Source of the DNA: Isurus oxyrinchus | Lineage: Eukaryota | Direction: 5' to 3' | Assembly (NCBI GenBank): GCA_026770705.1 | Contig: JANJGN010000062.1 | Span: 1,488,001-1,552,000, forward strand | DNA length: 64,000 nucleotides | Part shown: in pieces, positions 7,594 through 55,425 of the stretch | Layout: each line of letters starts with the position of its first letter | Numbering within the stretch: position 1 is the first letter of the stretch | Position numbers and translations under genes: made by a program | Notes under the pieces: generated by a model | Database searches by the model: none | Told to the model about the DNA's origin: nothing | Seen by the model: the letters and a program-made list of their open reading frames with translations, nothing else

Positions 7594-10500
7594 CTGAGTA
7601 ACAATAATTGATAATGAAACTGATTATTTTCACCAATGTACACATTTGGTTAATCAGAAACTGTCAATGGTTTGTATTGATACTGGTTCCATTCTGAGAT
7701 AATGCCAATCCTGCTGCTCCCACCTTCCTCCAAAACTTATTGTTATTCTGCATTACTATTGATATATTGTCAATTTAGCCAATAGCTCTCAGTTTGATGC
7801 TACACACGTGCAGTGCATCAGCAGTGACATATCGACGAAATATCTGCAGATGCAGATGCGGAAATTCAGGTCAATAAATATCTGCTCTCCCCGCAGCCAC
7901 ATTTGTTCAGAAACAAGTCGTTCTCATCCAAATTCTCCTCTAGAAGCCATTGACGGAGACCGAGCCACTGAAAAAGCAGCGACAAATTCCCTGCACTGAA
8001 AGATGCAAATGAAAAGCTTCCCTTTCCCTCAAATCATTCCACCTGACACCCCAACATACAAGAGCTCATTGACGATGAGGAGAGAGGTCTTATTAATCAG
8101 AATGACCCGGAATACGACTTTAAGCAGCTGGTATTTCATTGGGTCAAACGTCCACAACCAAACTACATCAGATTGCAATCAAAGCCTCATCACCCCCGCC
8201 AGAAGAAATCCCATCACCAAAATGATTTTACATTTCTCTCTAATTGTATTATCTATTGCAAGGTGATAAATAGGTTTATTGAAGGAACTATTCTCAAGGT
8301 CCAAATGTACAGCATTTACTACCTTTGCCAGCTCACTTTTCAACAATCTCACTTGGATTTGTAAGGCTTACTCTTCACTCTATCGGCGAATATGGATGCC
8401 AATGTAGCTTTCTCTCGATACCACTTTCAGGATATAAATGTTGCCTGGCACACACTGACTTCATCTATACGTTGTGCAGAAACCGTGAGGGACTAAAATA
8501 TCCGTCGCTTCCACCTGGAAACCTGTGTTGTCCTCGGATAATTGTCGTCCACCATTTGATCTGATGTCTGATTGTGCAACTAACATATTGACGAACAAAG
8601 TCACGGTGCAACCTCAGGCATGAAATGATAAATCCGGGAATGTTCCACCTGAAAAGTTCTGAACATGGTAATTCCAAAGTAATGTTAACACTTCATCTAA
8701 ACAGATCAGTGAAAGTAATGGCCACACACAATGGAAAAATAAAATGGCTCTTGTTATTTTTGTATTTGTTTTTATCTAGGCAGCTATCATATAAAGAAGC
8801 TTGTTTGGCTGCATATTTAAGGAGCCTGGATGAGAACATAACCGGAATACATGTCCAGTTCTGAGAAGAAAGCATTAGAAAACGTAAACTCATCGAAAAA
8901 GCTTTAGAGCGGGCACACAAGAATTTTTACACCGTCTTCTCAGTGGAAACTTGAGAGGGAAGCTTATATGGATTGTTTCATGTTCTCTTCAACTCCCGCA
9001 GTTTTAAATTTAAAAGATTCCTGCAGCATTTCCGACTTTATTTCCTGAGAGGTTTACAAGCGGACTAGACAGAAATAGCCCGGTGCGGTCATGTAGTTAC
9101 AGGGTGTTCACATCAGATTCAAAGTAGGATGGAGATATTCCTGCAGACGCTTAATTATATAATCAAACACTTCCACCTCTTAATGTAATAATCAACGTCA
9201 AAATGACTGGGGAAACAGCAGCTATATTCTCTCTCATCCTCACTCTGCCCTCTCAACTCGTTTAATCGGGTCAGTGTGAGGCAATGAGAAAGCAACTGCA
9301 TTACGCCCCTTCCTTGGCAATTACTGACTGGTAACTTTCCATTACGTGACCTGAATTATATTCAATAATGTAGGGGAGCAGAGAACAAATAGAAAAAGCC
9401 TCAATAAACTAATTTAGTTTTAATCCAGGACATCATTTACACTGCGGGACCCAGACAACATTTTGGATAACAGATTATCAGACCGGTACCTTCCAAAATG
9501 GTTACCATTGTTTCTGAAGGATAGTTTCTGCGATAACAACTGTATCCCCTGAATATCCCTTACGTAGCTGTAATGCCAAAATTTTATTGGCGTGCAATGT
9601 GAACACCGCCTCTCCACAGGAACCCCTTAGCCTAATAAGGGTTATTAGCACGTTCTGTTTTTTTTTCTTCTGATTTCCAGGAACCACAGTTATATCATTT
9701 TCTCTTAATTTAGCAGTAGCCTTTCTATCCTCTCGTGCACAAGGGGAAAAAAAGCCACTACCGTGACAACCCATATGGAGTTAGGGTACAGGTAGCAAAA
9801 TCAATTCCAAACTGGTTAGCAAACAGAAATTATTGATTAGGGGTTGAGGGTAGATATTCAGACCAGCACAAAGTTAATACGTTGTGATCTACAGGTGCCA
9901 GGAACAAAATTCCCCACCGAATTATTCACAAGAAACTGTTCCAAATTACTGGATGAAGTGAAATTAGAAGCACGATTGAAACTCAGGAACATTGCGGCGA
10001 AGTACTGAAGAACAGTAATTACAGTGGCAGAATAAACAGTAATTGCAATAATTTTACAAAATGTGTGATCATAATTAAGGGCAATGAATTCATTTTGTTA
10101 GGCTTAATTCAGATGTCATGTACTCCTTGAAAAATGAAAGCGCAAATAAGTTAAGTGCAGAATCGGATTTCGGCGGAGAGATAAACAAATCATCGAAAAT
10201 ATAGATCAAGAAAATCCAAACAAAAAGGATAGAAAATACCGGCCTTCATTACTGGATGGACAGAATTGAAAAGTTTGATAGGTTTTTTTACGTTTCGGTC
10301 ATCGGACGCTTGCGCCAGCGGGATTTTACTGTGACGCCGAAGTCAGTGGACATTTGAATAGGTCGCCGCCATTTACGCCCCGCCCCCGCCGCAACGGGGC
10401 CGTAAAATTTCAAGAGACAACAGAAAATGTTGAACACTATCTGTAAGGATTGTGACAGTTCTGCGAGGAGGGCTGAGGGGAAACAATCAATAGCCAGGCT

Positions 10501-11889: not shown

Positions 11890-12165
11890 TCACGCGCAGA
11901 CCCGTAGTCCAGCTCCCGAAACACCACAGCCGTGTCTTGCATGTCCCAGCTGAGACCAAACTGAGTCCCCCACTTCAGTTCTGTTGAAGGGTCATGAGGA
12001 CTCGAAACCTCAACTCTTTTCTTGTCCGCCGATGCTGCCAGACCTACGGAGTTTTTCCTGGTAATTCTGTTTGTGTTACAGTCCGCCACTTCCCCATGTA
12101 GTGAATCGCCACTCTTCCTGAGCACCTACGGCCCACATTCGACCGTCTTAGCTTCACTGTCTCCG
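11890..12165 (-). pseudogene. Truncated, interrupted SRCR exon, paralog of SRCR domain 1 (62516-62830)
   Basis: KWGTQFGLSWDMQDTAVVFRELDYG matches [25 protein letters not shown]. Acceptor AG changed to GG (ttttacgg). Interrupted by a ~104-bp insertion; 3' half deleted. Confidence 0.85.
11976..12079 (+). mobile_element. Short Penelope-terminal-repeat fragment inserted in the pseudo-exon
   Basis: Same sequence as the arms at 13653-13871 and 18755-19345. Flanked by a 12-bp near-direct repeat: agtcccccactt (11964-11975) and agtccgccactt (12080-12091). Confidence 0.8.
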
Positions 12166-12839
12166 TAAAACACCATAATACCGGTAGAATTACAACCTAA
12201 TAAACATCAGATCCCCAGCAATCGGGTTCGGTCGGTCAGTGCTCAATAATTTGCAATATTGGTCTGTGCCCAGACTCTCATTCAAAATTGGAATAAGTAT
12301 AATACGTGTGAAAGATAAAATTCTGATAGTAATAAACCCTGTGAACGTCTAGGTAATAAGTGAGAAGTTCACAGCACCAGAGATGTCCCCTCAGGGACAG
12401 CGTGTCCATAATTCACAATATGTTCCAGCCCCCAGAGATCAGAGAGACATGACTGTAATTGCTAACTGACTGATTGGACGCGAGAGATCCCAGCCCGAGT
12501 GCAAATTGGAAGATATCTAACCCTTCTCCAAGCCCGACCCGGAAATGGATCATTATGCAATCTCCATGACAAGGATGTTGTAACTCGCGAGGTGGCAGCC
12601 CATTTGCATCGGCAGCAGCATCAGTTGTTTTTCACATTCGCCTCCCTGGTGCCCCAGTCATTTTCGCTCTGCATTCGGCACCAATTCCCTCTCAACATGA
12701 TTTTAATATGTTCAGAAAGACAATTCAGGAAAAAAACTGCATTCGGCACTGGTAGCTATATGGAAACCGAGTTCATCAATGATCAAATAGACACTGCAAT
12801 TGTCTCCGGTATTTAGTTTGTCCTCGAGCATGACCCAGA

Positions 12840-13520
12840 CCTCCCTGTCGCTTGCGATTTCAAGAGTCCGCCCTGTTCTCATGCCCACATGTCCGTCTTT
12901 GGCATGCAGCATTGTTCCAGTGTTGCTCAACGCAAACTGGAGGAAGAGCACCTCATCTTCCGAGTAGGCACTTTACAGCCTTCTGGGCAGAATATCCAGT
13001 TCAACAATTTCAGGTATTGAGCTCTGTCCTCCATCCCCAACCACTTTCCAATCGCCTTTTTCCCAAATATTTATATAGGTTTTTATTTTCCCACCTATTT
13101 CCATTACTTTTATTAGTATTTCTGTCCAGTGCTTTATCTCTGCCTTTTAGCCTATTTCTATCCCATCCCCACACTCCACCCCCATTAGGCCTATCTGTAT
13201 CTTTATTAGCACATTCCATAGATAATATCACCAGCTTCAACACCTTTTAGTCCTTATGTCTTGTTTTGACATGTTTTGGCTATCTCCACCTATCTCTGGT
13301 CCTCTATCCAGCTCTAACTGTCCCATCCCTCCCCTCTAAACCAACTTATATTTCACCCCTTTTCTACTTTTTCTTAGTTCTGTTGAAGAGTTATACGGAC
13401 TCGAAACATTAAGTGTGTTCCTCTACGCAGATGCCCTCAGACCCATTTAGTTTTTCCAGGTATATTTGTTTTGTTTTGGATTACCAGAATACGCAGGGTT
13501 TTTTTTTTGCTTTTATCTTT
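12840..13520 (+). mobile_element. Penelope-like element 3' fragment (C-terminus of GIY-YIG region plus terminal repeat)
   Basis: cgcaaactggaggaagagcacctcatcttccgagtaggcactttacagcc encodes RKLEEEHLIFRVGTLQP, typical of the vertebrate Penelope ORF C-terminus. It is followed by the terminal repeat with a hammerhead-like core at 13376-13414. Absent from the paralogous intron near 63480. Confidence 0.8.
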
Positions 13521-13652
13521 TATTTTGGTTCGTTTTAATTGGCGTGGATTAGAGCAGGAAGTTATCTGATAATATGAAAATTGAGACTGATCACCTGATG
13601 GATTTTCCTGACTGCTGCCATGTCTGCCTGAAATGTAATATTGAGAATTAAC

Positions 13653-13871
13653 AAAACAAAAACAGAATTACCTGGAAAAACTCAGCAGGTCTGGCAGCAT
13701 CGGCGGAGAAGAAAACAGTTGACGTTTCGAGTCTTCATGACCCTTCGACAGAACCTTCTTTTCTTCTCTTCTTTTCTTCTCCGCCGATGCTGCCAGACCT
13801 GCTGAGTTTTTCCAGGTAATTCTGTTTTTGTTTTGGATTTCCAGCATCTGCAGTTTTTTTGTTTTTATCTC
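13653..13871. mobile_element. Penelope-derived fold-back insertion with 14-bp TSD
   Basis: Two inverted copies of aaaacaaaaacagaattacctggaaaaactcagcaggtctggcagcatcggcggagaagaaaa. Direct repeat tattgagaattaac at 13639-13652 and 13872-13885. Confidence 0.9.
13717..13754 (-). ncRNA. Minimal type I hammerhead-ribozyme-like motif (A6U variant)
   Basis: Minus strand GTT-CTGTCGA-A-GGGTC-ATGAA-GACTC-GAAAC-GTC-AAC: helix I (GTT/AAC), CUGANGA-like box, helix II, GAAA box, GUC cleavage triplet, no helix III. Activity untested. Confidence 0.6.
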
Positions 13872-15179
13872 TATTGAGAATTAACGTTCGCTGGGCGAAG
13901 AGATAAATGCACATGCAAGAAATGTTATTTCTTAAAAGCAACAACGAGGTTGTTTTGTCCTTCTTTGAACCAAAGGGTTGCAAGAACATTATGCTAACAA
14001 AATTCGCAAAGGCCAAAGTTCCCATTGTTATCGGAAGGTAGAATCTCTGTCGTTGTTCTGAAGAAATAATCTCGGAATTTGTGATTTCTCCTGTTCCCCA
14101 CTCCCAATAAAACAACCGATGCAGCCTCAACATCAAGTTCATCTTGCTAACATGTCAACATTTTTGCAGGAGTTCTGGAGAATACGCCATCTGAGAGATC
14201 AACTTCTCACTATATATAGCCCCTCCGACATTCTATCGATGGTACGTTGCCCTCATGACCCCGTTCGTTCTTGTTGACATTGTGACCTGTCGGTTTCTTG
14301 GTCACTTTCGATTTGTTAGTTTCACACCATTGACAGAGCGTTAACCTTTTCCAAAAGGTGTTAGTTTTTTTAAAATTTTACCTGAATAACCTTCTAGTCT
14401 CTCTAAATTCCAAATTTGCTGTTTTGTAGAACATTTGACACTGATTCCAGCCCTCAGATGGATTGCTGCACCTCCTTGCAAAATTCCCAGTTTTCCTTCT
14501 CCCACTTCAAATGATCCCATTATTCGCTGGCGCTACCGCATTCTGAAAGATTAACCTCACGGTTCTGTCAAAGCCTAACACAAGAATGGGGATTTGGGGG
14601 GCAATCTTTGCTGTCAGTGTAGAGTTGCTAAGGGCGTGTGAGGCTTTCCTGTAGTTGAAGTAAGTCACGCACTTTGGGCATTACAGAATGCAGAACGACA
14701 GAATGCCAGCCACATTGGTCCTGCTCAATTATCCTGCATGAAATCTTGAACCGCCTTCATCCAGACCTAAAGAAGGACCATATAGAATCGAAATGTTGAC
14801 TCTCTCCACAGATGTTCTCGGGTCTGCTGGGTTTTTCCAGCAATTTATCTACTGATGTTGCCAAAATCCAACGCCTTCTTTTTATTTTCTCCTTTAGTTT
14901 TAAACTACCAGCAAGTACATATCCAATACATCCTGTACAATTTTTTTAATGCTCCATATTGATTGACTCTTGCACCGTATCACAACACAGTAGAATTCCA
15001 TTAATATGTGTGACATATCCATTGTTGAATAACCTGCCCCAGTAACCTTGTGTCACCTTTCCAGGAAAAACTGACTAGGCTAAAATATTTCTGCCGAAAG
15101 CCTGCGCCTAATTAGAATGTATAAGTCATGAGTGTGATGCAATAGTTTGTAATTGTCTGAGTAATGGAAGTCGCAACAA

Positions 15180-18500: not shown

Positions 18501-18754
18501 TTGTATTACACAGAATACCCCCAAGCAAGATTAAATTTGTTAATTTTTGTTTTGCTTCATCAGTGTTTCTACATAATGCTGAAGGATTTAATGTTTCACT
18601 TCTGATGACGGCTGTAATTCCGAACTATGAGACAGTTCCCCAATAACACACACCTTCGGAGTAGTAATGTATAGCAGCTTCCAATAAAAATCAACGACCA
18701 ATCATTATCACTCCGAGTCTTCTGTACCCCTGGCGGGTTATATATCAGGTGATA

Positions 18755-19345
18755 AAAACAAAAAAAAAAAAACTGCGGATGCTGGAAATCCAAAACAAAA
18801 ACAGAATTACCTGGAAAAACTCAGCAGGTCTGGCAGCATCGGCGGAGAAGAAAAGAGTTGATGTTTTGAGTCCTCATGACCCTTCGACAGAACTTGAGTT
18901 CGAGTCCAAGAAAGAGCTGAAATATAAGCTGGTTTAAGGTGTGTGTGTGTGTGTGTGTGAGGGGGATGGGGGGGGGGGGGGGGGGGGGGGTCGGTGGGGG
19001 GAGAGAGAGAGAGAGAGAGAAGTGGAGGGGGTTGGTGTGGTTGTAGGGACAAACAAGCAGTGATAGAAGCATATCATCAAAAGATGTGAATCTTTTGATG
19101 ATCTGCTTCTATCACTGCTTGTTTGTCCCTACAACCACACCAACCCCCTCCACTTCTCTCTCTCTCTCTCTCTCCACCCCCCACACGCACACACACACAC
19201 CTTAATCCAGCTTATATTTCAACTCTTTCTTGGACTTGAACTCAAGTTCTGTCAAAGGGTCATGAGGACTCGACAAGTCAACTCTTTTCTTCTCCGCCGA
19301 TGCTGCCAGACCTGCTGAGTTTTTCCAGGTAATTCTGTTTTTGTT
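18755..19345. mobile_element. Penelope-derived ~590-bp near-perfect palindrome with 17-bp TSD
   Basis: Arms about 18792-19085 and 19090-19345 are reverse complements around a 4-nt GTGA loop. Direct repeat ttatatatcaggtgata at 18738-18754 and 19346-19362. Confidence 0.92.
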
Positions 19346-20999
19346 TTATATATCAGGTGATATTGCTACTTTGAAGACTATGTGGCGTTTACAGAGAACA
19401 AAATTATCAATGTTGTTTCATATTCAATGTCGCCAATTGTTACTCATTTACTCCCACTTTAGCAAACATCTGTTCCTCAATAGAGACACAACCAAAGTAT
19501 TAGTTTAGTACAACAAGGATTCCCTCTGCCGACAATGGACTGTCTCTTTGGTAGTCGGAACCACACTTCAAAGGCCATTAAGTGAATGTAACTAACGTCC
19601 AAACCATTTTCTCCTTACTCCTCAATAGTACCGAGCTGTCGGTTGAAGGCGGGCGATGACTTTGCCTGATGTGCATACCGTTTTCTAATCGGTCCACAAT
19701 TGTCCCCGGCTTTCTTTCGAAGGCTGTGCGACGACCTTGCCTTTGTTCACATAGTTTTAGCTTGTTTTTTTTTAATTGGCGGTTGATGATTCAAAATGCT
19801 AATGCAGAGCATTCGTACGCCCGTCTCATTGCTGTGAGTCAGCCTGTATAAAATGAGTAAGATTTAATGAGAGAGTCTATTCAGTTAATGTGTTCATATC
19901 AAACCTATGGATTGATTTATTATATTACTGATAGATAGATCTGATTGCTATTTGAGAACTCAGTGTTACCGGATATTTTATAGGGTCTTTTTCTTTCAGC
20001 TGAATGAGTCATATAATGGACCTTAAATTTGTATTTAGTGATTATTCGCTATATTGGAATAGTTCTGTTAATCGATAATGCATCACTCTGCAGGTTTTCT
20101 TTTATTTCATTTTTATTTTTAAATGAGTACAATGTTAAGTACATCGGCAGCGGGTCGGATTGATATTCTTGAGCCACTTTGTTGTTTTTGGGTCAGTTTG
20201 CCATTGTTCATAGGCTTATGTCGCTAACACGTTAACTGGAACAGTGTCAGTTTACGAGTGTTCCGTAACATCATTGGTACATATTGCGGGTTCACAATAC
20301 GTGAGTTGGGCCAGTGCAGCTTGATTTTAATAGACTTGCTTATTTTTTTATTTCAACGGATAAGAATGTGTCTTAATGGATTATTTTGTGCTGGAAGAAC
20401 GACATTTACACCTTTTAGATTGCTGGAAATTAACGTTGTTTTATCGGGTTGAAGAGGGTTGGTTTGTGGGGAATTTTCCCTATTTGCAGAGTGAGGCAGT
20501 TAATTCTCAGCGGGTTAGTTCAATGGCAGTCGGGTAGCTAATGTCTCTGTGTTAGTTTGGAAGTGATCGAAAATTTTAAATCCAGTCGATTATGTTCTTA
20601 AAATGGGGCAGCGGATCAGCAGGCCGGCAATTTCCTGCTCTTCAATCAGCTTGGGACGTGGATAACCTTTTGGGTTTTTGTTTGCTTTGTAAACACATGG
20701 CCAAAACGTTAGTATTGCGCAGGTTTGAAGGTTTTGAATCACTTTGGAGGATGATTACTTATTTGCCAGGTTTCCGGTTACTTTCTAATCACAATGTTAC
20801 TTTATACGCCATGTTGCCAGCATATGGCCGAGTGTTACTGTATAGTCACAATGTCAGTTAATTGAGTTTTGGCTTTTCTATGAGTTTGGATTATAATCAC
20901 AAAGTTAATCAACTTGTAGTTTTGTGTGTGTGTGTTCAGTCATTGACAGCAACACATTATCCATAAAATGGCAAATTGACGCACTCAATATGGCATACT

Positions 21000-23900
21000 T
21001 GTCTGGCATAGGACCTCTATCTTGCAGAATCTGAGTACCAACTGTCAGGCATTTCTTCTACACCCCATCTGGACCATAACCACATCAAACGGTACAATCA
21101 AGTGGTAGTTTCCAGGCCTGCCACCGAACTCAAATGCAAGGAATGCCTTCCCACTACAGCCTCCAAACTCATGGTACCCCAACTCTGTACCACCGACCTT
21201 TCCCTACTTCATATAATCCTCTCAAAAAGGACTGTCCTATGATACCCATTTACTCCACCTTTGCCTACCTCGGTGAAAGTATTTCTTCATATTTGTCTAG
21301 ATTTTGCTTCCCATGATGCAGAAGTCTCCTAAACAGCTTCGTGATAACTCCGTCGCCCTCAAACTCATCATTAATTTCCAGTTCCTAATTGCCACACTTC
21401 ACAATGTACATCCTATCCCTCCAGTCCTGCATCTGCCACACTGGCACTTTGATGCTCTCAATTTCTTCAATGACCAGAGGCCCGAACAGTCCATATCCAC
21501 CCACGTCCATCGCAGCCGGGCTGAACTTTATCTCTCACTGAGAAAACAAACGTTAAATTGTTTTTACTTTCCTTTCATCAAATAAGAATCACAGAGTCAC
21601 ACAGCTAAAACATTGCATTGAGGAACATTCGGCCCATCGTGACTGCTTTGGCACTCTAGGCATTTTAATTTAGTGCAAATCTCCTGTCCATTCCCCGTAA
21701 ACCTTTTCGTTTGAGAATGTCCCTAATGGAAGGACGGTAGTGAAGGTAACGTCACACAGGATCAGAATTCAGCTGGCAAGATGGATACAGAATTGGGTTG
21801 GTCATAGAAGGCAGACTATAGCAGTGGAAGGGTGCTTATATGAATGGAGAACGGTGACTAGTGGTGCTCCAAAAGAATCGGTTCTGGGACCTTTTTCTTT
21901 TTGCAGTATACGAAAATGGTTTGAAGGAAACTGTAACTGGCCTAATTAGTAAGGTTGCGATGAGATTAAGTTTGGAGGAGTTGCAGATCGTGAAGAGGTT
22001 TGTCAAAGGATTCCACAGGATATAGATCTTTTGGAGACATGAGCGAAGAATTGGCAGATGGAGTTAGTCTGTGCAATTGTGAGGTCATGCATTGTGGAAG
22101 GAATGATACAAGTAGGAATTATAGAGCAAATGGCAGAAACCTTGAGTGCATCGACGGGCAGAGGGATGTGGTTATACTGGTCCACAGGTCACTGAAAGTG
22201 GCAACGCAGGTCCACAAGGTAGTTAGGAAGGCATATGCCATGCTTGGCTTCATTGGCAGAGGTATTGAGTGTTAAGGTTGGGTAGTCATGCTGCAGATGT
22301 ATAGAACCTTGGTTAGACCACACTTGGCATATTGCGTGCAATTCTGGTCGCCACATTACCAGATGGATACGGAGGCATTGGAGAAGCTGCATTGTAGGTT
22401 TACCAGGAAGTTGCTGGCCTGGACATAATTAACTATGAGATGAGCTTGTAGAAACTCGGATTGTTCTCACAAGAGCGATGGAAATTGAGGGGTGACTTGA
22501 TAGAAATTTATACAATTCTGATTGGCATGGACAAAGCAGATAGACAGAAGCGTTTTCCCAGGGTGGAAGATTCAATTACTAGGGCACATGGATTTAGGGT
22601 GAGAGGAGAATACCATAGAGGAAACGTGCGAAGCAAGGTTTCTTTACGGATAGGATAGTGAATGTCTGGAATGTACTGCCAGAGGAGCTGGTGGAAGCAG
22701 GCACGATAGTGGTGTTTAAGAGGCAGCTGGACAAATACACGAATAGGTTGGAAATAGAGAGATACAGAAACCAGAATTGCTAAATGTTTTACTTTGACAG
22801 GCAATATGATGGACGCAGGCTTGGAAGGCCGAAGTGCCTGTTCCTCTGTGGTGTTTTTCTTTGTTCTTTGTTCTTTGCGGTTTCTATTGAAATAAACATC
22901 CAATAACGTCTTGAACGCCTCGATTGAACCTGCCAAAGCAACACTTCCATGCTGTGCATACAAAACCCTAATTTTTCACTGTTTGAAAAAGCTTTTTGCT
23001 CACTTCAGATTTGCACTCATATAGGTGGGGTTATAGGTGGCAGCATGGACCCGAATTACATCTGACTTTTTCGGGGGTGGTCATGTTCTATGTTTCTAAA
23101 TAAACTCCTAATCAGTCCCAATCCCAGAATTGATTCTTTTTTCTGGAACATTGATGACAGTTTTGCTGCCACTTTATGCTTTCTTCTGGACCATGGGGAA
23201 AATAAAAACAATCAAATTTGCATGCAATTGCAGACCTTTCTCACCTCCACATCTTGCAACTCCGATTCTTTCCTTCCACGACTTTTCTGTCTCAATTGCT
23301 GGTGATCGGCTGTGTACAAATATTATAGACAAACCCACCGATTTCCATAGCTACCTCGGCTGTACGTACTCACATCCTGCTTTCCAATATCCAACACTCC
23401 TGCCTCAAACATATCTCATGATGCTAGATTTCACAATAAAAATCCCAAATTGACTTCCTTCTTCCCCTGCCAAGCAAGCTCCCACCTTTTGGCCCCTTGA
23501 CCATGTCCGACGCATATCCAGAATTTCTGCATTCATTATTTTCCCTCCCTTTCTGAAGCCATGTGGTTGCCTATGCCCTCCTTCTCCATCCCAGCAGCCT
23601 GCATCACATACACGAAATGTAGCATGAGGTCAGGAGCAAACTTATCATCCCTTCTCTAATCTGGCGTCATTCCAAAGGAACATTTCTCTCTGTAACCACT
23701 TGGATCAAACAACTAGCACCATTAAACCTTCATTGCCGTTCACCTGCATTCTCACTTGCAATAGCTGGAGGTGTAATACCTCGAAATTTACGTCCTACCT
23801 CTTTACCATTAAAGCCTCAAGAAATCCCTCCAGGTGAAGCCATGATTTACTTATACTTCCTTCAAAGTAGTCTACTATATTTGCTGCACAAAACGCTATG

Positions 23901-24620
23901 TCGTCTACATTGGGAAGGCCGAGACCAAAATGAGTGTACTCTTTGCGAAAATAAATGAATGTTCTACGTCAGACATGAACCTTACCTTCTTGCTGCTTGC
24001 TATGTCACTTCACCAGCTTTGCTCTCATGCTCAAATTTCCATCTTCCGTCTGTGGGAATCTTTCAATGTAGGACAATGGAGGCTGGAAGGACACCTTCTT
24101 TGCAGTTAGGCAGTTGAAAGCCTGTTGGACTCAGCATTGAGTTTAACATCTTCAGGCAAAGAATTTTGTTCATTTTTTTCTGATGTAATTCTACACACGT
24201 GCAAGTCTGTAACTTGTTTCTTTGTTGTTGTTGTTGTTTTCAGTCAGAGCTAGCGCGTTTGTTTTGCCATTTTCTGCTAATTCGTTATTCTGGCTCAGGC
24301 AGTGCTCACATTTATTGTGCTATCGGTGTCTGGTCTCGAACTAATTATTAAACCTCAGCATTTCCTTGTCGTTCCCATTGTCTTGTGTTTCAGTACATTT
24401 TCCTAATGATATTTCTCGTGCCCTCTCACATGTTCCTGACCTCTCAATTTGTACTCCTGTCCCTTCTTTGCCTGCCCCTTCTTTTTTTATTAAAACAACA
24501 TTAAACTGATCAGATTTCCACCTCTGTCCTGTTCCTAAGCAATAAGTAATATTGGACTCCTAATTTTATCTATGTTTCCCTCTTCCCAGGTACTGACCAT
24601 GAGGTATCTTTTCACGTATT
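21000..24620 (+). mobile_element. Decayed Penelope-like element (RT + GIY-YIG), split by nested CR1 insertions
   Basis: Remnants FFWNIDD (RT YIDD-like), IIDKPTDFHSYLGCTYSHP, and a GIY-YIG-like VVYYICCTKRYVVYIG near 23867-23915. Terminal-repeat-like end at about 24530-24620. Confidence 0.75.
21730..22875 (+). mobile_element. CR1 LINE 3' RT fragment
   Basis: WIQNWVGHRRQTIAVEG...WRTVTSGAPKESVLGP; VVRKAYAMLGFIGRGIE; 3' tail with ttctttg repeats. Confidence 0.88.
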
Positions 24621-31150: not shown

Positions 31151-33169
31151 TGCCATGCTTCCGTGATTATGGTAGTATTATTGTTACAAGCACTAAAATT
31201 TTCCTGAATTATTTTATGATTTACTTTGCAGTTGCTGTTTCATGCATTGTTTTTGGAGCTTGCTGTTTGCTAATTCCACCTAAGTTAATTCCATGCATTT
31301 ATCTTCGGATCCAAGGTTATCTGTCACTACAGTATCAATACTGTTTTATTAACTGTGCTATCCACAACATCTGCCTGTTCTACCTGATTGTTCAATGCCA
31401 TTCAATAATCAGTTCGCAGCGTTTCTTTCCTTGTAGCCATGTCACTGCAGATTTTATATCGGAGCTGGAAAACGTCAATCACAAACAGGTAGTAGTAGGG
31501 AAAGGAAAGAACACATTATAATTACTGTGGCAATGTGGATTACAGATAATGGAAACTATTCTATATTTCAGTTTTCCAAAAATGGATGTAGCTTATAAAC
31601 AAAATATGCCCCTTGAGTGACTCCTGCAATTTGACATACATAGCAGCTCAGTTCAATTTGTTTTAATGCTTTAGCGTGTCTCAGGAACCCTTGCAAGCCA
31701 GTTATGTTCATAGTTCGTACTTCATATCAAACATTAGTTTGTACCTTGCAATACAGCGACCAAGTAGAGGGCACACTAGAACAGATAACAAGATGCTTCC
31801 TTCATTTAAAAAACAGAACATGTTTGAATAGATCCCGTATGCCTGGCAGCATCAGTTCAGATAATAAGAACTCAGTTTTTTTGGAACTCTGAATTCCAAA
31901 GAGGAAACATATTGGACTGGCAAGGTTAACTCTTTTTCTCTCTCCACGGAAGCTGCCAGTCCTTCTGAGCTTTTCCAGCATGTTGTGTACTTATTACAGG
32001 CCTCCACTGACTGCACAAAATTGCTTTTAAATTCCATACATAATTTGCCGCGTTGCTGAGTGACAGATCAGTACAACGTCTAACTTTGATACAAAATGAC
32101 TCATTAGTGAGTTGTAGCAATATCCGCATGTTCAATGAATCCAGTATAGGAAAGCAGAAGCAGTACACCAACATGACTAATTCACCAGGATGGATTTGTT
32201 GTGGCCCTGAAAAATGACAGACATCAGGGAAAGAATGCTCTGAATGTAACGCATGTGGGTGAAATTTATTATTCCTCTAAGGGGGGCTCTGCCGTTTCGT
32301 ACAGAAATAAAGCTGATTTCCAGAGGAAAAACGGTCCACGTATGATTAGCGAAAGAGACCAGGTGACGAAGAAAGTGCATTTGTTGATGTAGTAGGTGCC
32401 AATTGCAAACACAGTAAAATAATTGATCTTTAGGTTTATGGATAGTAGGTATAGATGGGAGTCTAGCATGATGCTGATGCAGAGGAGCAGGTCGAGGGCG
32501 GAAGTGTAGGATATGGGACCGTCATGGTCGAGATCCCTGTGTGCCCCAATGAAGCCGACTTATGGGCAGAGCATGGAGGAAATAATTTCTATAGTAGTGT
32601 TGTGGAACGTGGCCCAATTAATACAGATGTGATGAAGGCGGAGGAATATGAAAAATCAACTGAGAAATTACAGGAAGCAGAATGGCAGGAATAATGATAA
32701 AGATTGGTGTGCATGACAGCAGCATTGTTATACGTATTGTAAACAGTCTATCCCCACAAATGGAAATAGGAAGTCGAGGGAGGACGCGGGAGTCCTCACA
32801 GATAAGTCATGCATAGGGAGGACAGCAATTGAATTATTTTATATAATAGATAGGTGGTCTATTCCAAGTCAACACCAGTAAACTAAAGGCAGAATAACAT
32901 AGCAGTTAAAATATCAGAAATAATGTTCCCTTCACATAAACAAAGGGATAGCTAGGACTCTTAAAGATTTAATGTAATTATTCTGCTTTTATTGGAGAAA
33001 TGCTGTAGATGCAAAGGTGATTTTTCCAATAAGAGTTAAGCTTCGACAGATGAAGATTGTTGCTGTTACAAGGCAATTATTTGGACTGACGTATATGAAT
33101 GAAAAAGATGGGTCGTTTGGAAAGCGTGGAAGGGGTCAGCGATGAAGCAATCCACAGAATTCCCAGTAA

Positions 33170-50198: not shown

Positions 50199-51174
50199 CT
50201 GATCCAAAGAAGACAATCTTTATTACGAGGATTCGATTACGCATTTATGTCATAACACAAATTGAAACTATTGGATATTATCCAGCAAAAGTAATAAAAC
50301 AAATCACTTGACTATGACAGGTAACTGTTTCTATAGTTGAGACCATGTATCTCTAATTACTTGGAAATTTATAATGTGGAGTGCACAAAGATTTCAAATA
50401 TTCCTACACCTGATTCCATCGATATTTTGGCTTGCAGTTCACGTATTGTGTGCTCAGTGCTGTGTGCCCTGTTTCAACCTCAGCTGAACTTTTTTGTATT
50501 CATCGTTCCACCTAAACTACTTATGAACATCAATTGTACACAACTTTTTCTCTCCCCTGCACGTATCTCGAAAACTTATTTCAGTCGATTTCTGATTATC
50601 TCGCTTTTTTATTTTGATTATATTGAAAAAAAATGCTGCAAATCCTCAGGGGATCTGGCAGCTTCAATGGAAACAAGAAACCAAGTGACTTTGAAGAATG
50701 ACATTTCATAGAAGCTCAGCCTTCTGCTGCTGAAAGACATGTAAGTGCATCGTTTTTTCATGGATTGAATAATGCAGAAATCCCATGAGCGGCCTGTCGC
50801 TCTGACGAGTATGTGAACGGCAATTCTATGAAAACGCTGTTAAATTAACACACGATTTCGCACCAAGCTGTAAGGCCCCTCCCAACACCACACCGCCCCG
50901 CCCCTCACAACTCCCCCCGCCCCGCACTAACAGAAGTGCTGTCAGAATTCCCTGTTTGAGAGAAAATTTTGAATTCCGTCGTTAATAAATGCGCAGCAAA
51001 AATGCATGTCCTGCTTGTTGATCAGTTCTGTGCGTGCCCACTCTCCCCACGTTAGCCCTCCAATGCTAAGCAGTTAGGTTAAAAGAACTCGAGGAACAAG
51101 TGGCGTATATTCACACCTCCCTCCTTATTAGATATTTCTATTTATGTTCCGGTAAAATTGAACTATTTATTCAC

Positions 51175-54396: not shown

Positions 54397-55425
54397 CTGC
54401 AATGCACTGCCTGAGAATGTGGTGGACGAGGATATGCAATGCACTGACTGAAATTGTAGTGAATGATGAAATGCAAAGCACTGTCTGAGAAAATGCTAGC
54501 TTAAGATCTGCAATGCAATGTCTTAGATTGTGATGGATGAGGATCTGTAATGCATTGACAGAGAATGTGGGTGATGAGGACCTGGGATGCAATGTACCAG
54601 AATATGCTGGATGGCAATCCGCAATACACTGTCTGAGAATGTGACGGATGACTGTCTACAATGCACTGGCTGAGAATGGGGTAGGTGAGGATCTGCTTCA
54701 AGCTATCTGACATGCACATTCTGAGATCGTGGCGGGGGGGGGGGGGGGGGGGTGAGGATCTGAAACACACGGTCTGAGATTGTGGGGGATGTGGATCTGC
54801 AATGCACTGCTTGAGAATGTGGTGGATTTGGATCTGCAATCCACTGCCAGAGAATGTGAGGGAATAAAGATTTGCAATGCACTGTCTGAGAATGTTAGTG
54901 ATGAGGGTCTGGAATGCACATGTATGAGAATGTGCTGGATGACGATCTGCAATGCTCTTTCAGATAATTTGGTGAATGAGGACATGGAATGCACCTTCTG
55001 ACAAGGAGGTGGATAAAGATCTGAAATATGCTGTCTGAGATTGTGGTGGATGTCGACCTGCAATGCACTTTCTGAAAATGTGGCGTATGTGGATCTTCAC
55101 TGCATTTTCTGAAAATGTGAGTGACGAGGATCTGGAATGCACTGTCTGAGAATGTGCTGGATGACGATCTACATTCCACTGTCTAAGATTGTGGTATTTG
55201 ATGATCTGCATTGTACTGTTGGAGAATGTGGATGATGAGGGTCTGCAATGCACTGACTGAGAAAGCGAAGGATGAGGATATGAAATCCACTCTCTGAAAA
55301 TGATGGTGATGAGGATCTGCAATTCATTGTTGGAGAATATGGTGCTTGAAGATATGAAAAGCATCGTCTAAGAATGTGGCGGCGAGGATCTGAAATGCAC
55401 TGCCTGAAGATGTGGTGGATGAATA
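54397..55425. repeat. 37-bp degenerate minisatellite (about 28 units) inside a CR1 3' fragment (about 53950-55600)
   Basis: Unit about gcaatgcactgtctgagaatgtggtggatgaggatct; starts at 54399, 54436 and 54473. Confidence 0.92.

Follow-up and report, generated by a model that had tools for sequence, protein, structure and literature searches.

A minimal hammerhead motif with uridine at position 6 in Penelope-type insertions of Isurus oxyrinchus: a possible attenuated ribozyme

The window considered here, a 64,000-nt stretch of Isurus oxyrinchus DNA, contains five copies of a short motif that resembles the hammerhead ribozyme. A first-pass annotation had reported five copies, and all of them are present where it placed them, with the copy at 13717 running to 13755. 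The copies, and the parts of the best preserved one, are as follows.

13717-13755, minus strand: minimal hammerhead, best preserved; the sole copy passing a structural descriptor with position 6 as its single change
13755-13752 paired with 13720-13717, minus strand: helix I of this copy
13751 (C3), 13748 (U6), 13746 (G8), 13745 (A9), and 13744 (extra A), minus strand: core of this copy
13743-13739 paired with 13733-13729, minus strand: helix II of this copy
13728-13725, minus strand: GAAA box of this copy, followed by the palindrome, to U16.1 at 13722
13721, minus strand: C17 of this copy; the predicted cut is between 13721 and 13720
18856-18894, minus strand: hammerhead copy with U6 and with decay at a pair of CpG sites, G12A and position 16.2
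19245-19283, plus strand: hammerhead copy with U6 at 19252, decayed (G8A, A14C, and position 15.2)
11977-12015, plus strand: hammerhead in a main-subfamily fragment, with U6, U7, and a broken palindrome
13376-13414, plus strand: sister-subfamily hammerhead with U6 at 13383, U17, and a different loop; helix II is GAGUC in reads

C3 lies at 11981, 13380, and 19249 on the plus strand and at 13751 and 18890 on the minus strand. Position 6 is U in five of five copies, so none has the canonical CUGANGA box with A6; as previously claimed, U6 and an extra A after A9 are both invariant columns of the alignment. In hammerheads, G12 and G8 are the catalytic residues, and A6 supports the U-turn by hydrogen bonds. 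The core of the 13717 copy is intact save for position 6 (C3, U4, G5, G8, A9, G12, A13, A14, A15.1, U16.1, and H17 are all present), and the same bases are the majority in public reads. Core damage at 19245 is private to that copy: reads of run X21 have G8 in 96% and A14 in 98% of cases, and G8A and A14C are therefore attributed to decay.

The motif is not a chance match, since the structural descriptor (helix I of at least 3 bp, core boxes with at most one change, an extra H, helix II of at least 4 bp, a palindromic pair, and UH) has one match in the window (C3 at 13751, minus strand, with position 6 the sole change) compared to a mean of 0.005 over 200 dinucleotide shuffles. The sequence pattern of the first-pass annotation, with up to three mismatches, has four matches in the window and none in 100 shuffles; the 13376 copy is more distant. 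No hammerhead family is among the 28 Rfam matches at E≤10, a model match being uninformative for a motif this small.

Helices I and II are paired in 44 of 45 cells across the five copies. Predicted pair probabilities of helix II are 0.92–1.0 in four of the five; helix I is weak. None of the nine stem pairs is changed on both sides in the window copies, with helix II being kept by one-sided changes only. The pairing-compatible helix II change noted earlier at 13376 does keep pairing, but it is one-sided, and the U at 13392 (GAGUU) is private to this copy, with C in ~95% of reads. Helix III is absent and the palindromic 15.1–16.1 bases are in place, as expected of a minimal hammerhead (“min-HHR”). 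Replacement of helix III by the palindrome ACGU, as proposed, describes the read majority and the 13717 copy, but the palindrome is broken in the other four window copies (ACCU, ACAU, ACAU, and AAGU); in reads, departures from ACGU are at the CpG level, ~9% per site.

The five motifs represent only four insertions, with 18856 and 19245 being the two arms of a single inverted insertion; the earlier count thus holds for motifs. There are two subfamilies, with three insertions belonging to what we refer to as the “main” subfamily (4–9 differences per 95 nt between copies) and one to the “sister” subfamily (the 13376 copy, with 23–26 differences per 95 nt from the main copies and 23 from the main-subfamily majority). 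The insertions and related features are as follows.

13653-13871: young inverted Penelope-type insertion; the minus arm has the 13717 hammerhead and the plus arm begins near the predicted cut site
13639-13652 and 13872-13885: target-site duplication of this insertion, 14 nt, 100% identical
18755-19345: second inverted insertion, main subfamily; the arms hold the 18856 and 19245 motifs, and the tail is on the minus arm only
18738-18754 and 19346-19362: target-site duplication of the second insertion, 17 nt, 100% identical
11977-12077, plus strand: truncated fragment of the main subfamily, its first base being that of helix I
12817-13014, plus strand: C-terminal 66 codons of a Penelope-type GIY-YIG endonuclease from a decayed element, ~360 nt upstream of the 13376 motif
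14762-14852, plus strand: old decayed relative with the same pseudo-LTR end (nhmmer E=1.7e-11)
31872-32029, plus strand: old decayed relative (E=4.9e-09)

The arms of the 13653-13871 insertion (13652-13715 and 13772-13835) are 100% complementary over 64 nt, and in the alignment a ~36-nt tail extends the plus arm only. The perfect arms and the perfect 14-nt duplication bear out the proposal of recent mobility for at least this insertion. The plus arm (~13755-13772) begins only a few bases from the predicted cut, via helix I complementarity, and a 13-nt tandem duplication follows this start (13755-13790). We do not take the plus-arm start as evidence of cleavage, as helix I complementarity accounts just as well for this single case. 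In the second insertion, arms 18785-18966 and 19173-19354 are 92% complementary, and the central arms, 18993-19085 and 19090-19182, are 97% complementary over 93 nt with a 4-nt gap between them. GT, G, and GA microsatellite runs lie in these arms (18941-19200), and Rfam microRNA matches below the gathering score correspond to the same 18.9–19.2 kb inverted repeat and are spurious. Both inverted insertions (2/2) consist of an inverted, 5′-truncated copy with a 30–40 nt tail at one end. An inverted copy with a tail at one end is a hallmark of Penelope elements (PMC8557442). A non-LTR retrozyme was also considered and rejected, with the copies being dispersed or inverted and head-to-tail tandem units absent.

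The 66-residue peptide encoded at 12817-13014 has 67 phmmer matches at E≤0.001. Six of 14 matches scanned have a Pfam GIY-YIG domain at E≤0.01, two of them above the curated cut-off, and in these homologues the domain sits just upstream of the part matched by the peptide; the peptide itself has no direct Pfam match. The source organisms of the seven matches looked up are all sharks, skates, or rays. The order of endonuclease C-terminus followed by pseudo-LTR is seen for the sister subfamily only, with the 13376 motif in the 3′ pseudo-LTR. The window has no intact reverse transcriptase-endonuclease ORF, none of five window fragments matched Pfam, and word-indexed protein searches found no long homologues. 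A conserved motif downstream of the hammerhead has no loci in a viral pattern scan; the one locus in a metagenome scan is unrelated beyond a 21-mer, and 12 loci from a scan of prokaryotes with the downstream motif were, judging from their titles, taken as chance. Judged from sequence, the motif belongs to the minimal type I hammerheads and lies in the pseudo-LTR of a Penelope-like element of elasmobranch type, in line with the earlier assignment, because GIY-YIG lies upstream of 13376, the inverted, tailed insertions have target-site duplications, and the motif fits the published consensus except at A6.

Older relatives of the same pseudo-LTR end are present in the window. Those at 14762 and 31872 have A at the place of position 6, in a register set by eye. 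Fainter nhmmer matches lie at 31809-31876 (minus strand, E=0.005), inverted beside the 31872 copy, at 50630-50692 (minus strand, E=4e-05), and at 9609-9700 (plus strand, E=0.11). A second, older Penelope remnant at 23100-24600 (plus strand) has a reverse transcriptase-like piece and an endonuclease C-terminus (tblastn with the 12817 peptide, E=6e-07), with a badly decayed hammerhead-like stretch near 24530.

Minimal hammerheads of metazoan Penelope pseudo-LTRs were described by Cervera and De la Pena (2014; PMC4209133), and the window motif resembles them in nearly every respect: a helix I of 3–4 bp, an extra base after A9, a G10.1-C11.1 pair, a 5-bp helix II, GAAA, a palindromic 15.2/16.2, UH, a pyrimidine-rich 5′ flank, location in the pseudo-LTR, many solo and opposite-strand copies, and several subfamilies per genome. 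The window copies have both the extra base between A9 and G10.1 and the G10.1-C11.1 pair. The first-pass annotation had called the extra A unusual; instead, a base between 9 and 10.1 is a conserved trait in that study, present by our own count in 54 of 56 aligned motifs. The difference lies at position 6, which is A in 56 of the 56 aligned examples and U here. The descriptor of that study required the catalytic boxes, so the 56/56 count cannot show an absence of variants, and the alignment, in the available text, has no cartilaginous fish. A6 is likely ancestral, because it occurs in all 56 published examples and in the two old relatives in the window.

Three further systems are informative. 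First, the Poseidon “PAc” hammerhead of Anolis carolinensis (PMC11167929) is likewise a minimal hammerhead; it lies close to the element end and may be followed by a tail. Its ORF starts at stem II, and it has been assayed and found to be protein-assisted and dispensable for in vitro insertion; the available text mentions no change at position 6. Second, Perreault et al. (2011; PMC3088659) described a natural position 6 change, A6C, in phage Bcep176, with the other core bases kept and low but detectable cleavage. However, that case is a single phage sequence with C, whereas here a U6 subfamily reaches ~10^4 copies per Gb and has no helix III. Third, the U3-A8 min-HHR family of Schistosoma mansoni, with ~1,300 matches, is a family-wide core variant among Penelope hammerheads (PMC4209133); the change is compensated there, whereas A6U is accompanied by no visible compensating change. 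The available text of PMC6765202, PMC6155905, and PMC6431247 has nothing on position 6 variation, and a preprint (bioRxiv 10.64898/2026.07.22.740005) describes, in its available part, use of canonical and minimal hammerhead models and inclusion of one chondrichthyan. Among titles and abstract openings, nothing relevant was found on A6U hammerheads, the variant box, or shark Penelope elements, which weakly supports absence from print. U6 in an abundant subfamily with the other core bases kept may be new; the motif type and its setting were already known.

Six of 24 public sequencing runs were compared with two stretches of the window. Stretch 19200-19350 (main subfamily) was matched with raw reads of X21 and X22 and contigs of X5 (organism B), and contigs of X1 (organism A). 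Stretch 13345-13425 (sister copy) was matched with runs X21, X1, X19, and X15, with all variants at ≥3% shown; X15 is probably DNA, and X19 aligned nothing on this stretch. The core-box depth on 19200-19350 is ~24,000 in 1,887 million bases, or ~12,600 main-subfamily copies per Gb. U6 is the majority base of this young subfamily in runs of two species, contrary to the outcome that the first-pass annotation named as refuting, a canonical A6 in the young-family consensus. Among the variants listed for 19200-19350, there is none at position 6 (19252). X1 has no T>A change at ≥2% anywhere on the stretch, and X21 has T>A at ≥2% in three places, all outside the variants listed, of which the weakest are at ~5–7%; judging from these, the A6 share of the main subfamily in X21 is probably below ~5–7%. 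At CpG sites of the core and palindrome, 7–9% of reads show decay, indicating that the main subfamily is young but not brand new.

The sister subfamily is mixed. At 13383, A6 is present in 1,447 of 8,500 X21 reads (17%), in 108 X1 contigs (8% of depth), and in 11 X15 contigs; in addition, the canonical box CUGAA stands at the end of 323 clipped reads. The 17% value is likely a lower bound, because the reference copy has U6. The description of A6U as family-wide therefore holds for the main subfamily and not for the sister subfamily.

The pattern of variation bears on whether the U6 motif is still under selection. On 13345-13425 in X21, using tables that are unphased, pool U6 and A6 lineages, and come from mapping that favors reference-like reads, none of nine non-CpG core sites besides position 6 (C3, U4, G5, G8, A9, A13, A14, A15.1, and U16.1, with G12 set aside as a CpG site) varies at ≥3%, whereas 5 of 7 tolerant sites (N7, H17, and loop II) and 16 of 41 flank sites do so (Fisher p=0.005 and 0.02, respectively). 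The reference-private changes at 13392 and 13413 were excluded from the counts, and CpG sites were set aside. Variants interleaved with the core were detected, and mapping bias is not obviously site-specific. Position 6 is the sole non-CpG core site that varies at this level. Two of 18 stem and extra-base sites vary: A>G at 10.2 (34%), with pairing kept, and one helix I base (3.5%), with the pair broken. Between the majorities of the two U6 subfamilies, 5 of 39 sites are different: four tolerant ones (N7, H17, and two in the loop) and 10.2, where the change is compatible with pairing. None of these differences is harmful (p=0.004, or 0.015 without N7, a CpG site). When only the core is considered, 0 of 5 differences fall in 10 sites, which is unremarkable (p=0.20). 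Overall, the pattern of variation leans toward retained function.

We give a probability of roughly one half to the reading that the U6 motif is an attenuated, likely dimeric, protein-assisted ribozyme that would still be under selection. Two copies would pair via the ACGU palindrome and an exchange of helix I strands, so that the CUGUYGA and GAAA boxes of one copy would act on the GUC or GUU of its partner. U6 would weaken the U-turn without disturbing the C3-G8 pair or the catalytic residues G8 and G12. The rate of cutting would be low, with most insertions copied from uncut RNA; a drop in rate would cost little, while total loss of the fold would still be selected against. Slow, protein-assisted cleavage would be tolerated because uncut RNA is the usual template. 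Several observations from other systems bear on this proposal. The natural A6C hammerhead cleaves with a kobs of <0.1 per min (PMC3088659). The PAc hammerhead needs its protein in order to cleave, and insertion draws mainly on uncut RNA (PMC11167929). Minimal Penelope hammerheads are weak even with A6, with no cleavage as monomers and low cleavage as dimers (PMC4209133), and U6 may bring such already weak ribozymes to nil activity.

Folding predictions are mixed. For the 13717 copy, the full dimer has no mispair, a predicted energy of −10.3 kcal/mol, and helix II pair probabilities of 0.97–1.0. However, another cofold is predicted to be lower in energy than the hammerhead dimer (−17.4 vs −10.3), and helix I pair probabilities are 0.2–0.5.

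Among the loose ends and joints listed for 19200-19350 and 13345-13425, insertion ends do not cluster at the cut site. Each of the five motif copies was inserted in full, and two insertions start at helix I. Read joints at the start of helix I account for 4 of 15 listed at 19245-19246 and 4 of 11 listed at 13376-13378. Whole copies and joints at helix I are consistent with uncut templates, and they fit equally well a motif that is merely a relic. The AG at the start of helix I is where insertion ends (11977 and 13755) and opposite-strand read joints concentrate, and a pyrimidine tract precedes this AG at 13376. The AG may correspond to the 5′ end of an RNA or to a 3′ splice site, as at the end of the Drosophila virilis Penelope intron. 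Subfamily divergence also begins at the helix I AG, which confounds the joint count.

The relic account supposes that A6U killed cleavage in a master copy, that cleavage was not needed, and that there have been few changes since then. In vitro, insertion is unaffected in PAc catalytic mutants, with no RNA ends at the cut site (PMC11167929), Naiad elements are reported to proliferate without canonical hammerheads (PMC8557442), and a mutational scan found low activity for single mutants of the CUGA turn, with no second-site rescue except for a C3-G8 swap (PMC9901934). The non-significant core-only test points the same way. Against these stand the two U6 subfamilies, 23 of 95 nt apart in their window copies, whose read majorities keep the core, stems, and palindrome and differ only at tolerant sites, and the fact that position 6 alone among non-CpG core sites varies at ≥3%. 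We consider a relic the leading alternative, though an unlikely one.

Retention might also have nothing to do with catalysis: the fold or sequence could persist because the element protein or the host uses it as a binding, promoter, or splice signal, freeing A6 as a base needed only for catalysis. The PAc protein acts on the hammerhead RNA region (PMC11167929), and the D. virilis intron ends at helix I (PMC4209133); at 13376, helix I follows a pyrimidine tract and AG. In addition, sequence just downstream of the motif is also well kept across families. However, the sites that are free to vary are those that catalysis leaves free (N7, C/U at H17, and loop II), and, aside from decay at the CpG level, the catalytic G8 and G12 are maintained. 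We regard a purely non-catalytic role as quite improbable.

The coexistence of A6 and U6 copies suggests another arrangement, in which U6 RNAs are substrates only and are cut in mixed dimers by A6 subfamilies, with the core of the partner serving each cut site. A6 subfamilies are indeed present in the same runs (the 17% of X21 reads and 108 X1 contigs above), and the helix I strands and palindrome are identical in the read majorities of both U6 subfamilies. Such an arrangement would free C3-A9 and G12-A14 in U6 lineages, yet these do not vary, and the A6 reads seen on the two references are far fewer than the U6 copies; we regard it as very unlikely. Least probable of all, and hardly credible, is a coding constraint, in which the sequence is maintained by an overlapping reading frame that lost a UGA stop through A6U. 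The PAc ORF does start inside its hammerhead (PMC11167929), and here one frame reads UGU rather than UGA at positions 4–6, with several subfamily differences synonymous in it. However, the next codon is a stop when N7 is U, as in the sister copy and 39% of main-subfamily reads; moreover, most sister reads lack the loop AUG, after which the frame stays open for only 18 codons.

An extension of the attenuated-ribozyme reading is that position 6 is a tuning site in cartilaginous-fish Penelope elements, with the element's own protein or the dimer replacing A6, U6 ribozymes cleaving at a useful rate, and slower cutting having favored spread of these subfamilies; we hold this as doubtful. If it were true, the U6 subfamilies would depart naturally, and in high copy number, from the otherwise invariant CUGA turn, and they would offer a convenient way to test the role of Penelope hammerheads. 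These ribozymes are nearly universal in Penelope elements, weak in vitro, and unneeded for insertion in one tested case. A6 and U6 subfamilies side by side in one genome form a natural pair for comparison. If U6 motifs cleave with the help of a protein, the textbook core rule is relaxed, and CUGANGA descriptors miss whole high-copy families; if they are dead, a family of ~10^4 copies per Gb has spread without cleavage.

Elsewhere in the window, several frames with cysteine- and tryptophan-rich repeats lie between 48000 and 63000 (minus strand at ~48.0–50.2 kb; plus strand at 51.2, 55.6, 57.1, and 62.4 kb), and these resemble scavenger-receptor (SRCR) exons. Degenerate tandem-like repeats at 54500-55400 have long open frames on both strands.
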